Below are positions 45,535 through 52,973 of a stretch of DNA of 64,000 bases, piece after piece (position 1 is the first letter of the stretch; the number at the start of each line of letters is the position of its first letter). Made by a program: the position numbers and the translations under genes. The notes beneath the pieces are model-generated. The model saw only the letters and a list, made by a program, of their open reading frames with translations. It was not told where the DNA came from and searched no databases. Where the stretch lies: the NCBI RefSeq assembly GCF_041886205.1, contig NZ_CP169029.1, one strand, 5' to 3'. The DNA comes from Escherichia coli (GTDB taxonomy: Bacteria; Pseudomonadota; Gammaproteobacteria; Enterobacterales; Enterobacteriaceae).

Positions 45535-45938
45535 ACTTGCTATAGCAAAGAGTAAATTCATTCAGCGTTTTTATTACGTTTTTTTAATATTAATTCTTTC
45601 TCAAATCTAAGCATAATATTTAATAAAACGCATTTCATAGCTTTCGTGTTTTTGTCTGTGCGCTAACTATTCTGACAATAGATTAGTTAAAAAAGTCTTC
45701 ACCACCTTATTGATACATTGAAAGAATAACAGATTTAACAACACAGGCTTTTTAACGTCCAATTAATAAAAATATCACTCAAACAAATAACTAAATATTG
45801 CATATACACACAGTGAATATTATTTATTTTATCGAACTTCACATTCACCAGATCTATTTTTATTCCATTTGTATAAGCTTTATAATTTGCTGAGGTGACT
45901 CTTCTCACCTCTCTATTATTTTTATAAGGACATTAAAT
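45535..45938 (+). promoter_or_regulatory. AT-rich leader/promoter region of the yad fimbrial operon (candidate H-NS target)
   Basis: 404-bp spacer, strongly AT-rich with A/T tracts and TATAAT at 45881..45886; inverted repeat gaggtga-ctcttc-tcacctc at 45892..45911 just upstream of yadN. Confidence 0.5.
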
Positions 45939-46511
45939 ATGTTAAAGAAAAGCGCTATTGCTGCGGCATTAGTTATGTTTACCAGTTCGGCCTTCGCGCT
46001 GGATGGCGGCCAACTGGATTTCGCAGGTTTGGTAAGTGACAACACGTGTATCCTGCACGTCAACGGTGGTGCACAGGATGGACAAATTAACCTGGAAACC
46101 GCAACAACGGCTGAAGTTACAGGTGCTGGCGTAGTCAATGCAGCCAATGTCGGCGCGAAAGCTGAACCGTTCTCTATTACAGTGGATTGCTCAGCAAACA
46201 CGCCTGCCGCCGCTGAAGCCAATCTGAATATGAGCTCAGTTTTCTTCAGTAACAGCCAGGGCACCCTGAATAACGATATGTCCGTAAGCCAGGCGGCAAG
46301 CGGCGTCGCTATTGCCGTTCACTATGTACCAAGCGCCGGCACTTTCGAGCAGGTCAAAATCAATGACAGCACCGATATTAAAAACCTCACGTTAACCAAC
46401 GGTAAAGGGACCTGGAACTTCCAGGCATCTTACGTTAAGCAGGCAGCGTCGATTCCTGTCGTTGCCGGGTTTGTGAAAACCAACGCGGCTTATACGATCA
46501 CTTACCCGTAA
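45939..46511 (+). CDS. yadN: fimbrial major subunit-like protein (YadN-type), 190 aa, signal peptide
   Basis: Signal peptide MLKKSAIAAALVMFTSSAFA; fimbrial subunit features (Cys pair, C-terminal ...AAYTITYP donor-strand motif); first gene of the chaperone-usher operon. Confidence 0.8.
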   Translation: MLKKSAIAAALVMFTSSAFALDGGQLDFAGLVSDNTCILHVNGGAQDGQINLETATTAEVTGAGVVNAANVGAKAEPFSITVDCSANTPAAAEANLNMSSVFFSNSQGTLNNDMSVSQAASGVAIAVHYVPSAGTFEQVKINDSTDIKNLTLTNGKGTWNFQASYVKQAASIPVVAGFVKTNAAYTITYP

Positions 46512-46573
46512 TTCAGATACAGACCAGGCAGTCGATGTCGGGCTGCCTGTATGACTTTAATAAGGACATCATT

Positions 46574-47317
46574 ATGACCAGGACGCGTCAGTTACTCCTT
46601 GCTTCACTTTTCACCTGCGCAGGTGCATTAGCCAGCTTTTCTGCCTGTGCCGATATTGTGCTTTCCGGCACGCGTATTATTTACAACGCAAACCAGAAAG
46701 AAGTCTCCCTGCGTATGGAAAACAAAGGCAGCCGCCCGCTGCTGGTACAAACCTGGATCGATACCGGGAGTGAAAACGCGGATCCCAGCACCATCACCGT
46801 GCCTTTTACCGTCACGCCACCGGTCTCTCGTGTGGACGGTAAACGTGGGCAGACGGTGAAAATCGCCTGGAATACCAGCCAAACGTTGCCCGCCGATCGC
46901 GAAAGTGTTTTCTGGTTCAATGCGCTGGAAGTCCCCCCCAAAATGAGCGAGACCGAGGCTCAGGGGAAAAATATCCTGCAACTGGCGTTCCGCACCCGCA
47001 TCAAGCTGTTTTATCGCCCGGCTAACCTGGTCGGCAGCGCCCCGGACGCCCCCAAACAACTGACCTGGCATCTGCAATCCTCTGGCGGGAAAGTTGTGCT
47101 TCAGGCCACTAACCCAACGCCATTTCACGTCTCTTTCAGCAGCATTAGCCTGATTTCGGGCGGAAAAAAATACGCCGTCGACGCCACGATGGTCTCCCCA
47201 AAAAGCAGCGCTGACATGACAGTGAAAGGTCTGAGCACTGCATCTGCTGGTGCAACGATTGAATATACCGCCATTAATGACTTCGGCGGTGCCATTGAAG
47301 GCAAAGTGAAGCTTTGA
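46574..47317 (+). CDS. yadV: PapD-like periplasmic fimbrial chaperone (YadV/EcpD-type)
   Basis: Start at MTRTRQLLLASLFTCAGALA (ATG 46574, AAGGA RBS); PapD-like two-domain chaperone. Confidence 0.85.
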   Translation: MTRTRQLLLASLFTCAGALASFSACADIVLSGTRIIYNANQKEVSLRMENKGSRPLLVQTWIDTGSENADPSTITVPFTVTPPVSRVDGKRGQTVKIAWNTSQTLPADRESVFWFNALEVPPKMSETEAQGKNILQLAFRTRIKLFYRPANLVGSAPDAPKQLTWHLQSSGGKVVLQATNPTPFHVSFSSISLISGGKKYAVDATMVSPKSSADMTVKGLSTASAGATIEYTAINDFGGAIEGKVKL

Positions 47318-47347
47318 CGCACTGACTAACTACGCAGGGATTGCACA

Positions 47348-50550: not shown

Positions 50551-51147
50551 ATGAATTATCAACGCATAATTGTGGCGCTACTGTTGATCATCGGAATAAA
50601 TACGCAAAGTCTGGCCGGTTCCAGTACGTTGAACGTGACGGTGAGGACAACCGTTACCGCCAGTACCTGCACAGCAGAACTTCACAATGCGCAAGACCTG
50701 CAAGCAACAACGATTGATATTGGTGATGTCTATCTGAACGAACTTGCAAATAAGACTAAATATCAGAATTTCAGCCTGGTATTTTCAAATTGTGAAGGAT
50801 TAGCCAAAGATCAGGCGACCGTCACACTTTCGCCGCAAACAGGCTGCGATGGTGCTTCCAGTACGGGTGGCGGATTTCGCAACGCACTGGCCTCCAGCAA
50901 CAATGATGCCGCAACCGGCGTATCGATTGAAGTATGGACGACCAATCAGCCGGAAGGTCAGGGAAGTGTGCAGCTAAACTGCAAAACAAAACCGACCAGT
51001 ATTGTTGATCTGACGGGCGCGTCAGGTGTGAACGTTGTCCACTGGTGGTTAAGCTCCAGAATTGTCGTCGCCGCGGATAACACTATCGCCGATGTACGCG
51101 CGGGACAGTTCTCCACTAATGCTGTCTTTTCAGTAACCTATGAGTAA
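50551..51147 (+). CDS. yadL: fimbrial minor subunit-like protein (YadL-type), 198 aa
   Basis: Signal peptide MNYQRIIVALLLIIGINTQSLA; C-terminal ...NAVFSVTYE. Confidence 0.8.
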   Translation: MNYQRIIVALLLIIGINTQSLAGSSTLNVTVRTTVTASTCTAELHNAQDLQATTIDIGDVYLNELANKTKYQNFSLVFSNCEGLAKDQATVTLSPQTGCDGASSTGGGFRNALASSNNDAATGVSIEVWTTNQPEGQGSVQLNCKTKPTSIVDLTGASGVNVVHWWLSSRIVVAADNTIADVRAGQFSTNAVFSVTYE

Positions 51148-51153
51148 ACGACG

Positions 51154-51726
51154 ATGAAATCACGCTTTCGACTGTTCGTTTCCAGCTTAGGGTTTATTTC
51201 AGCGGTCTGTATTGCCAACACCAATATTAATATGACCGCCAACGTTGTCAGCACCAGTTGCAAAGTCACGCTCGACAATAGCGGCAGCATTGATTTGGGC
51301 ACCGTAGATTACAACTATCTGAACACAAATACTGCTGTCGATCGCGTTTATACCGGTGGCCAGGCGTTCTACATTACTGTCAGCGACTGCGCGCAGGTTG
51401 CAGGGAAAAATCCTTCCCGTCTTACGGTGAGTTTTACGCCCGTCGGGGGCACCCTCGGCGCAACCAATCAACAGGTTTTCGCCAATCAGGCTGCCGATGG
51501 CGCTAAAAATGTCGGCATCGTAATTTTATCCACCCAGGATGCGCAAAGTATTTTCAATGTGCTGGACACCCACGGCCAACCGCAAAGTATTTATCCCGTG
51601 AGCGCGGATCAGTTAGTCAATGCTACTTACCATTTTTATGCACGGATGCAGAAGATCGACCTGACGCAAGCCGCGACCGGTGGTGTCGTGCGGGCCAGTG
51701 TGTTTGTCGGTGTTTATTATGAATAA
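51154..51726 (+). CDS. yadK: fimbrial minor subunit-like protein (YadK-type), 190 aa
   Basis: Signal peptide; C-terminal ...ASVFVGVYYE fimbrial motif. Confidence 0.8.
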   Translation: MKSRFRLFVSSLGFISAVCIANTNINMTANVVSTSCKVTLDNSGSIDLGTVDYNYLNTNTAVDRVYTGGQAFYITVSDCAQVAGKNPSRLTVSFTPVGGTLGATNQQVFANQAADGAKNVGIVILSTQDAQSIFNVLDTHGQPQSIYPVSADQLVNATYHFYARMQKIDLTQAATGGVVRASVFVGVYYE

Positions 51727-51752
51727 TCTTATTCGTTCTCAAGGATGATGAA

Positions 51753-52973
51753 ATGAACCGTTTTCTGTTACCTAAATGGGCCAAAATTTTACTGCTTTTA
51801 TTGCCCTTATATTCTGGTTACTTGCAAGCCGCAAATACATTGATCGTTGGCAGTAAAACAACCTCTGACGGTAGTGGTATCAATAAAAACAGAGGCCCGG
51901 CCGGCGACGGTTATTCCACAACCACCTTCACCACCGGTAACAGTCAGATTGTTATCGGCCGCGCCACTACGCTGCAATACAGTAATATCAAAATCCAGCT
52001 ACAGGCCGATACCGCAGGCAATGGTAACACGGGGGTCATTTACTGTGCACCAGGGGGGATGGGCGGACCCATTTCACTGGAAAGTCATTTTGTCGCAAGC
52101 CCCTACGTCTATAATAATCACAAGCTTTTCAAAACCAACATGCCAGGGCTGTATTTTACCATGCGCATGTATAATTTATGGTCCTATGCTCTGACGTCAT
52201 CAGAAGACTTTTATATCGGCGATACCAATCCATACTCTTTGAATCTACACTCAACGATATGCGCGAAATCTCTCGGTTGGTACCAGACCCTTGGTGGGTT
52301 AGTTGCTAGTATCGACATTGATTTTTATAACGACGCCACATTTGACCCCAACGCCAGCGGCAGTGTTGCTCTACTGAGTGATACCACCTATCACTACTCG
52401 TTGAAAAACCAGTCTCCCGGGGGGAATCTCGTTACCAAAACTATTTATCAGACCTTCAATATGGGGAATGTCACATTAACCTCTCCAACCTGTTCGTCGG
52501 CGATACTCTCCGGCAGCAGCGTCAGTAAGGGCGACACGGTAGGATTGGGCGAATACAGTTCGAAAGAGGTTATCGACGGCCTGAACGGCGTGCCTTTTTC
52601 AATTGTGCTGAAAGGGTGTTATCGGGTAACCAATATTGATGTCAAACTGACTACTGGGGCGCCTGCGGTATCGACGTCGCTATTGGGCAACTCGCTGACA
52701 ACCAATGCTGCCAGCGGCGTAGGCGTAGAAATTAAAGGCGAGTCCAACTCGCATTATCCTGAAGTGGTGCTCAAGCCAAACGACGCTTCCTCAATCTATA
52801 AAGCATATGGCGATAACCCGGAAACCTCAAACGGTATTATTGGCAGCAATGCTTCGGGTTCGCCTGCCGACCAGACGCTGAATTTTACCGCGACGCTCAA
52901 GCAGGATGGTAATCAGCAAATCCGGGGCGGAGATTTCAAAGCGACGGGAGTCTTCTCCATCACCTACCCCTGA
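51753..52973 (+). CDS. yadC: fimbrial tip adhesin-like protein (YadC-type), 406 aa
   Basis: Signal peptide; two-domain size typical of tip adhesins; C-terminal pilin-like ...GVFSITYP; last gene of operon followed by a terminator hairpin. Confidence 0.8.
   Translation: MNRFLLPKWAKILLLLLPLYSGYLQAANTLIVGSKTTSDGSGINKNRGPAGDGYSTTTFTTGNSQIVIGRATTLQYSNIKIQLQADTAGNGNTGVIYCAPGGMGGPISLESHFVASPYVYNNHKLFKTNMPGLYFTMRMYNLWSYALTSSEDFYIGDTNPYSLNLHSTICAKSLGWYQTLGGLVASIDIDFYNDATFDPNASGSVALLSDTTYHYSLKNQSPGGNLVTKTIYQTFNMGNVTLTSPTCSSAILSGSSVSKGDTVGLGEYSSKEVIDGLNGVPFSIVLKGCYRVTNIDVKLTTGAPAVSTSLLGNSLTTNAASGVGVEIKGESNSHYPEVVLKPNDASSIYKAYGDNPETSNGIIGSNASGSPADQTLNFTATLKQDGNQQIRGGDFKATGVFSITYP

Follow-up and report, generated by a model that had tools for sequence, protein, structure and literature searches.

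Introduction

The Yad fimbriae of Escherichia coli have been described by Wurpel et al. as core-associated and as the counterpart of the Sta fimbriae that Salmonella carries at the same locus, Yad/Sta being regarded as ancestral to both genera (PMC3559732). Yad fimbriae have been linked to bloodstream and urinary virulence in work that scored strains through one usher: a genome counts as Yad-positive when it encodes HtrE at no less than 80% identity over at least 80% of the length of the reference, and in this 2026 study the 80% rule left 30% of genomes Yad-negative, among them almost every genome of phylogroups D and E (PMC13245861). The same work reports that H-NS represses yad in K-12, CFT073 and EC958 (PMC13245861). 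Here we analyze the folK–panB interval (45535–52973) of a 64,000-nucleotide stretch of E. coli DNA (RefSeq assembly GCF_041886205.1, contig NZ_CP169029.1), which we call the window and whose positions are used throughout. The interval holds seven fimbrial genes that an earlier note, made from the sequence, had described as a low-GC, horizontally acquired set of non-K-12 yad alleles.

Our main conclusion, to which we assign a probability of about 0.8, is that these genes form an intact operon of the Yad/Sta family, belonging to a rare and deep haplotype class that took the place of the whole yad operon usually found there. It is a member of a known family and reveals no new kind of system. The sequences are already in RefSeq under generic names; we found no paper on this haplotype or its exchange across genera, on Pseudocitrobacter fimbriae or on folK–panB as an exchange site.

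A Yad/Sta-family operon distant from K-12 Yad

Seven plus-strand open reading frames (ORFs), all intact, lie between folK (45055–45534) and panB (53091–53885), in the order major pilin N, chaperone V, usher, minor pilins M, L and K, and adhesin C (Table 1). The ORF list, the Pfam profiles and the RefSeq annotation bear out the gene map of the earlier note, with its seven co-directional genes, their lengths, the overlap of usher and M, and the domain content. The RefSeq annotation that agrees is that of strain wlxctx60, which is 100% identical across the interval and both flanks. It is likewise correct that every gene differs in length from its K-12 counterpart (Table 1), whereas pcnB, folK, panB and panC are equal in length to those of K-12.

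The window operon has in common with the Yad operons of K-12 and uropathogenic E. coli its folK–panB slot, seven-gene order, orientation relative to the flanks and domain content, and the K-12 leader is comparable (369 nt and 27% GC, against 404 nt and 27% GC), although the two leaders are not homologous. The proteins differ from those of K-12, with 33–58% identity (Table 1), and PcnB, PanB and PanC are 99–100% identical. Identity to the O157 Yad proteins is 17–57% (usher 52.5%, N 39%), and a search against the O157:H7 Sakai cluster, which occupies the same slot, gave 33–57% and no match for the adhesin. The non-K-12 part of the earlier description is thus sound, and the part that would make these ordinary alleles is not, since protein identity is this low and the usher falls in a separate clade. 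Neither proteins nor GC content proved indistinguishable from K-12 yad (coding GC 50.9% in the window; 41.7% for the whole K-12 cluster).

The operon encodes a two-domain PapD-like chaperone, a complete usher, pilins and a two-domain tip adhesin, as chaperone–usher operons do. In NCBIfam, every product best matches the Yad or Sta component that holds the corresponding position, and the chaperone, the usher and K reach the equivalog cut-offs. PRK09828 and PRK09926 were taken as the HtrE and YadV equivalogs from their full-length profiles of 865 and 246 positions and the RefSeq naming, the library labels being generic. The architecture, the locus, the assembly machinery and the best NCBIfam matches together identify a member of the Yad/Sta family, and the position between folK and panB, the gene order (pilin, chaperone, usher, three minor pilins, adhesin) and the usher and chaperone scores above cut-off are those of Yad. 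Compared with HtrE of K-12 and with the main E. coli HtrE cluster, the usher is 58–59% identical, well under the 80% HtrE threshold, so carriers would score as Yad-negative.

Likeness to Salmonella Sta is partial. The best-scoring models are StaA for N and StaD for M, and L matches StaE about as well as YadL, with every Sta-model score below its equivalog cut-off. Salmonella ushers share 52–62% identity with that of the window and are spread over several other branches of the usher tree. The assembly logic is shared with type 1 (Fim) pili, and the structural model of the window adhesin is closest to FimH and FocH; adhesin sequence identity is nevertheless 12–14%, the window lectin domain is larger, and the whole-chain TM-score is 0.27–0.46. 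An invertible switch or recombinase of the fimB/fimE type was not found at the window locus.

Distribution in E. coli and junctions of the proposed replacement

A megablast search of 5426 complete E. coli genomes found the window operon in eight, seven at 99% identity or more and one, GF4-3, at 93.4%. Thirteen further genomes carry the type of strain E400634, with a 76% match across 59% of the query. K-12 yad was not detected by megablast with the window operon, and protein and blastn comparisons were used for it instead. K-12-type DNA is present in 4747 genomes, O157-type DNA in 648 and E400634-type DNA in 15 (coverage of at least 80%), and all four operon classes were confirmed between folK and panB. 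The locus is therefore lineage-variable, as the earlier note had proposed, with eight carriers of the window type against 4747 of the K-12 type and a patchy distribution.

All seven ORFs are intact in the window and in seven of the eight complete carrier genomes. In six carriers (wlxctx60, 6EVA, LHM10-1, XJ5.2, CP52E and VE-T9) the flanks, 14.4 and 10.9 kb long, are at least 99.8% identical, compared with 98.6–98.7% for the next-best genome, so these six represent one lineage, which presumably includes the window. ET201 belongs to the same lineage and shows recombined patches, one of them across M, L and K (2–5% divergence). GF4-3 has a different background, and its adhesin differs by 21% of nucleotides over 52.0–52.5 kb. 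By exact-sequence cluster look-up, the window protein sequences recur unchanged on 387–620 contigs; draft genomes also include truncated adhesin fragments. In the carrier VE-T9 (NZ_AP027963.1) an IS1 element is inserted in the operon, an instance of inactivation in the wild.

In comparative alignment the cluster does not behave like core genome. Collinear homology to K-12 ends at 45486 and restarts at 53091, and between these points only three weak patches, of 66–70% identity, occur, in the chaperone and usher genes. The left edge lies inside folK: the C-terminal 17 residues of FolK (about 143–159) vary with the fimbrial haplotype across the K-12, O157, E400634 and window types and three Pseudocitrobacter loci, and only the window, ET201 and GF4-3 have them in common. 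Because this tail co-varies with the haplotype, the recombination junction lies within an essential gene that tolerates replacement of its tail. Divergence from K-12 climbs toward the locus, to 6–11% in the 3' half of folK and 5–6% at the 5' end of panB, over a mosaic background of 0–4%.

Genomic-island machinery was not found at the locus. The interval has no ORF other than the seven fimbrial genes, and hence no integrase or transposase gene; an Rfam scan of 45.0–55.2 kb gave no match, and thus no tRNA, although no scan aimed at tRNAs was made. Direct and inverted repeats at the junctions amount to short matches at chance level and shared ribosome-binding-site context, and a model with att sites or a genomic island was accordingly rejected. 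The lack of repeats, integrase and tRNA points to operon replacement by flanking recombination: homologous recombination would have swapped the operon in its entirety, one crossover falling in the 3' end of folK and the other at the start of panB.

Relatives in Pseudocitrobacter and exchange between genera

Scanned with the usher, the GTDB species representatives yielded two species only, Pseudocitrobacter vendiensis (82%) and P. faecalis (81%), and each has the whole cluster between folK and panB. A large protein search added, at 81–83%, ushers of E. albertii, Escherichia sp. 94.0001 and Pluralibacter lignolyticus (78% for the truncated Pluralibacter sequence); ushers of Salmonella, Citrobacter, Kluyvera and Superficieibacter are about 60% identical and the common E. 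coli HtrE 59%. The slot is shared by the three Pseudocitrobacter loci, which are the ones whose position was checked. In a neighbor-joining usher tree the window and GF4-3 fall within a clade of Pseudocitrobacter, E. albertii and Pluralibacter, and the clades of K-12 and O157 are well apart from it. The sequences of E. coli, like those of Salmonella, occur in several places in this tree, which is incongruent with the species tree. Patchy distribution and a phylogeny that departs from that of the hosts, as expected of a genomic island, are thus both present.

The closest copy came from the exact-sequence cluster look-up and not from the scan of species representatives: the clusters of at least 90% identity for five window proteins contain entries of unclassified Pseudocitrobacter. 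Pseudocitrobacter sp. GCA_029335625.1 (locus L011) carries seven genes of identical lengths in the folK–panB slot, and the window proteins are 87–96% identical to its products (usher 96%, N 93%). Nucleotide divergence from L011 is mostly about 5–15%, rising to about 18% in N and in the lectin half of the adhesin gene, and is about 23% in the flanks. Synonymous divergence (dS) is 0.27–0.47 across the operon, compared with 1.18 for pcnB, 1.52 for folK, 1.27 for panC and 0.84 for panB; it is 3–5 times below most flanking genes and about 2–3 times below panB. Operon dS well below flank dS implies an operon several-fold younger than the genus split. The low-divergence tract starts at 45879, 60 nt 5' of N, and ends at about 53.1–53.25 kb, near the start of panB.

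A second, independent case concerns the E400634 type. Its usher and the P. vendiensis usher share 96% identity (E400634 locus L002, 8600–13250, against P. vendiensis locus L007); the block of chaperone, usher, M and L is about 5% diverged, the flanks about 20%, and the block of K and adhesin more than 30%, so exchange appears recurrent and mosaic. Taken together, these sequence comparisons are clear evidence that Escherichia and Pseudocitrobacter have exchanged this operon class after their separation as genera. A horizontal origin, as claimed in the earlier note, is thus supported by phylogeny and dS; neither a low-GC coding part nor island machinery was found.

The Pseudocitrobacter loci also differ from the window. 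They carry an extra pilin paralog 5' of N (L011 7815–8390; L007 about 7892–8405), 78% (L011) and 69% (L007) identical in nucleotides to the window N gene. Where they have this paralog, the window type has a 344-nt AT-rich leader with no detectable homolog. Their FolK tail and leader differ as well, and their host flanks are about 23% diverged.

Selection and the predicted pilus

The ratio of nonsynonymous to synonymous substitution (dN/dS) is 0.05–0.19 in all seven genes, both against GF4-3 and against Pseudocitrobacter sp.; all seven are under purifying selection. All five pilin-type products end in a conserved C-terminal strand, ...(T/Y)Y(P/N/E), and the N-termini of all seven products are, by inspection, hydrophobic and signal-like.

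The adhesin comprises a lectin (receptor-binding) domain at about residues 27–240 and a pilin domain at about 241–406. Its AlphaFold model, built with 30 aligned homologs, is all-beta, with a mean predicted local distance difference test score (pLDDT) of 86.5. The best full-length matches in the PDB are the two-domain tip adhesins FimH, FocH, LpfD and CupB6 (E about 1e-8 for FimH and FocH), and the C-terminal domain matches the pilins FimA, FimF and FimG. Against K-12 YadC the pilin half is 51% identical and the lectin half 35%, so binding of xylose or annexin-A2 cannot be assumed. The earlier note had called the tip adhesin variable, and its N-terminal receptor-binding half is in fact the most variable part of the operon. 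In the comparison with GF4-3, identity is 81% and dS 1.29 for the lectin half, and 96% and 0.21 for the pilin half, dN/dS being about 0.09 in both. A lectin dS of 1.29 with low dN/dS suggests that the lectin segment was replaced by recombination rather than altered by selection on point mutations. Positive selection on the adhesin was considered and rejected, dN/dS being 0.09–0.15 even in the lectin half.

By analogy with the Fim and Pap paradigm, the seven products would be exported through Sec by their signal peptides, and the PapD-like chaperone would cap the subunits by donor-strand complementation. The usher would then catalyze donor-strand exchange, taking the adhesin first, next the adaptors K, L and M, and the rod subunit N last. 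Receptor specificity would, on the same model, reside in the N-terminal lectin domain of the adhesin. Expression of the operon is probably governed from the 404-nt leader, whose AT-richness fits silencing by H-NS, and H-NS repression is likely by analogy with the other yad types (PMC13245861). Silencing may be weaker than for K-12 yad, since the genes themselves, unlike the leader, are not AT-rich.

Weighing the evidence

Several observations weigh against the main conclusion. N, M, L and the adhesin remain below the NCBIfam equivalog cut-offs, so function is not simply transferable from YadN or YadC. The plus strand of the leader contains no match to the sigma-70 consensus, and the scan total was not above that of shuffled sequences. 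The FolK tail and the first 344 nt of the leader (45487–45878) have no homolog in any Pseudocitrobacter locus; as this segment is private to the E. coli carriers, the block as a whole did not come from direct exchange with the sampled Pseudocitrobacter. The 3–5-fold ratio is approximate, because flank dS above 1 approaches saturation. Finally, the raised divergence of the flanks beside the locus would also be expected from long-term balanced polymorphism.

This last point leads to an alternative in which several operon classes in the slot predate the divergence of Escherichia and the window class is a rare vertical survivor, with no transfer between genera. The presence of at least four deep classes in one slot within E. 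coli fits such an ancient polymorphism, as do the more diverged adjoining parts of folK and panB, the private FolK tail and leader, the host-like composition and the ancestral status given to Yad/Sta by Wurpel et al. (PMC3559732). Strict vertical descent, however, would give equal dS values in operon and flanks, and those observed are 0.27–0.47 against 1.2–1.5 for pcnB, folK and panC; the E400634 usher, 96% identical to that of P. vendiensis between flanks about 20% diverged, speaks against it in the same way. We therefore consider descent without transfer unlikely. Ancient classes may nevertheless persist and also be exchanged, so that balanced polymorphism and replacement by exchange are compatible.

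It is quite unlikely that the locus is a low-GC, horizontally acquired island of ordinary yadN-yadV-htrE-yadMLKC alleles silenced by their AT-richness. In favor of such an island stand the leader, the last four genes (44.5–49.9% GC individually), the patchy distribution, H-NS repression of other yad operons, and the rank of the interval as the second lowest in GC among 114 windows of 7.4 kb. The composition of the coding part argues otherwise. The interval has 49.5% GC and the 64-kb window 51.8%; the coding sequences have 50.9% (53.0% in the first three genes, 48.1% in the last four), the left flank 54.4% and the right flank 50.2%, and a 7.4-kb stretch of core genes at 54.5–62 kb is just as low at 49.4%. 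GC at third codon positions is 50–65%, as in the flanks, and 34–41% in K-12 yad. Relative synonymous codon usage correlates with that of the flanking housekeeping genes at r = 0.86, close to the 0.88 of a split-half control of the housekeeping genes and far from the 0.45 of K-12 yad. The AT-rich operon is thus that of K-12, whose 41.7% GC the window coding part exceeds by far; a scan of GC content and codon usage shows host-like coding composition, only the leader being strongly AT-rich, and the statement that the cluster is visibly more AT-rich than its flanks did not hold. The compositional part of the island explanation is largely refuted. Protein identities far beyond the allelic range and the lack of island machinery at the locus count against the rest.

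That the operon is a cryptic, decaying remnant, its genes intact by chance and its pilus no longer made, is very improbable: K-12 yad and most E. coli chaperone–usher operons are unexpressed in laboratory culture (PMC3559732), and the IS1 insertion in VE-T9 and the truncated adhesins of draft genomes would fit decay, but the intact ORFs here and in seven of eight complete genomes, the low dN/dS of every gene against two relatives and the recurrence of exact protein sequences on hundreds of contigs do not.

A possible exchange slot and its significance

Replacement of the whole operon may be one instance of a broader process. We tentatively suggest, at somewhat short of an even chance, that the folK–panB slot is a long-lived cassette-exchange locus spanning several genera and following the logic of the O-antigen locus, in which operons and sub-blocks are swapped and at least four E. 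coli classes are kept by selection. The sub-blocks swapped by homologous recombination in the conserved flanks may include the adhesin lectin domain and the block of chaperone, usher, M and L, and the partners may comprise Escherichia, Pseudocitrobacter and probably other Enterobacteriaceae. The selection that would hold at least four classes in E. coli is presumably diversifying or frequency-dependent and would act on surface structure and on the choice of receptor. A role of the nearby rpnC nuclease in favoring exchange at the slot is speculative. If the slot does work in this way, strains and phylogroups scored as Yad-negative would carry functional, unrecognized pili of the Yad/Sta class.

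Scoring by a single usher overlooks whole classes of syntenic, intact and selectively maintained Yad/Sta-type pili with different adhesins. The locus offers a clean case of operon replacement at a fimbrial site regarded as core-associated, with the junctions mapped inside folK and at the start of panB, and evidence of an exchange with another genus that involved no mobile element. Base composition misleads here, for it is the common K-12 operon that appears foreign and the rare, imported-looking one that appears native. These results can be put to practical use in adhesin typing, in receptor discovery and in the reading of presence and absence in pangenome studies.

Feature map and noncoding signals

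Table 1. Features of the folK–panB interval, with the lengths of the K-12 counterparts and identity to them. Scores are in bits; cut-offs are NCBIfam equivalog cut-offs.
Feature	Position	Strand	Size	K-12 size	Identity to K-12 (%)	Matches and remarks
Left junction, last ~16 codons of folK, haplotype-specific	45487–45534	+				K-12 homology ends at 45486
AT-rich leader folK–N, presumed promoter/silencing region	45535–45938	+	404 nt			27% GC
Hairpin GAGGTGA-CTCTTC-TCACCTC, then T-rich run	45892–45911	+				Terminator-like; 28 nt 5' of N start
Major pilin N (YadN/StaA position)	45939–46511	+	190 aa	194 aa	51	Pfam Fimbrial 1.5e-10; best NCBIfam StaA, 145.6 (below cut-off 230); C-terminus ...YTITYP
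PapD-like periplasmic chaperone V (YadV/EcpD position)	46574–47317	+	247 aa	246 aa	54	PapD_N 1e-43, PapD_C 3.3e-20; NCBIfam PRK09926, 358.9 (above cut-off 285)
Outer-membrane usher (HtrE position)	47348–49969	+	873 aa	865 aa	58	PapC_N 2e-39, Usher 2.8e-157, PapC_C 1.9e-20; NCBIfam PRK09828, 1348 (above cut-off 830)
Minor pilin M (YadM/StaD position)	49966–50538	+	190 aa	189 aa	33	Pfam Fimbrial 8.9e-8; best NCBIfam StaD, 87.9 (below cut-off 228)
Minor pilin L (YadL/StaE position)	50551–51147	+	198 aa	201 aa	35	Pfam search without match; NCBIfam YadL, 146.8 (below cut-off 206), StaE, 143.4 (below cut-off)
Minor pilin K (YadK position)	51154–51726	+	190 aa	198 aa	40	Pfam Fimbrial 2.9e-14; NCBIfam PRK15262, 193.7 (above cut-off 132)
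Two-domain tip adhesin C (YadC position)	51753–52973	+	406 aa	412 aa	40	Pfam Fimbrial only at residues 257–405; best NCBIfam YadC-type model PRK09723, 280.6 (below cut-off 382)
Likely operon terminator CCGGCAG-TTAACC-CTGCCGG, then TTTT	52982–53001	+				GC-rich palindromic stem; scan reported minus strand
C–panB spacer, right junction	53002–53090	+				Promoter-like site for panB at 53018–53047

The usher stop and the M start share the ATGA at 49966–49969, as read directly in the sequence. Another possible ATG for the chaperone, at 46535, would give a product of 260 aa; the RefSeq start is that of the 247-aa form. A 23-nt direct repeat, 83% identical between 45911–45933 and 46547–46569 and ending in TATAAGGACAT, lies directly 5' of the start codons of N and the chaperone and probably represents a shared translation-initiation context.

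No other 400-nt stretch of the window is as AT-rich as the one in the leader, whose GC is more than 6 standard deviations below the mean; the second most AT-rich spot lies at 22351–22900, with 41–42% GC in 400-nt windows. The leader segment 45535–45878 has no homolog among the K-12, O157, E400634 or Pseudocitrobacter leaders, and the hairpin sits in the remaining part (from 45879), which aligns to the region between the pilin genes of Pseudocitrobacter. The high-affinity H-NS motif has one near-match in the leader, no more than chance, and 14 in the window against 15.3 expected; not being enriched, it was dropped as evidence of H-NS control.

To the left of folK, patches at 43000–43400 (gluQ), 36500–37200 and 33400–33600 are 6–10% diverged from K-12. 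The flanks of the window are otherwise 0–3% diverged, with some stretches 100% identical (41200–42600), the usual E. coli recombination mosaic. Between panC and rpnC, about 195 bp (54754–54948) are absent from K-12 and present in O157 Sakai, ET201 and GF4-3; the RefSeq annotation here is a 66-aa transposase fragment for ET201 and a partial pseudogene for GF4-3. The 3' end of rpnC (55000–55200) is 18% diverged from K-12. The gene itself (55040–55936, minus strand) lies some 2 kb from the hypervariable fimbrial slot; its product is a recombination-promoting nuclease (Transposase_31 family), and this neighbor is retained in Pseudocitrobacter (L011 17425–18339).

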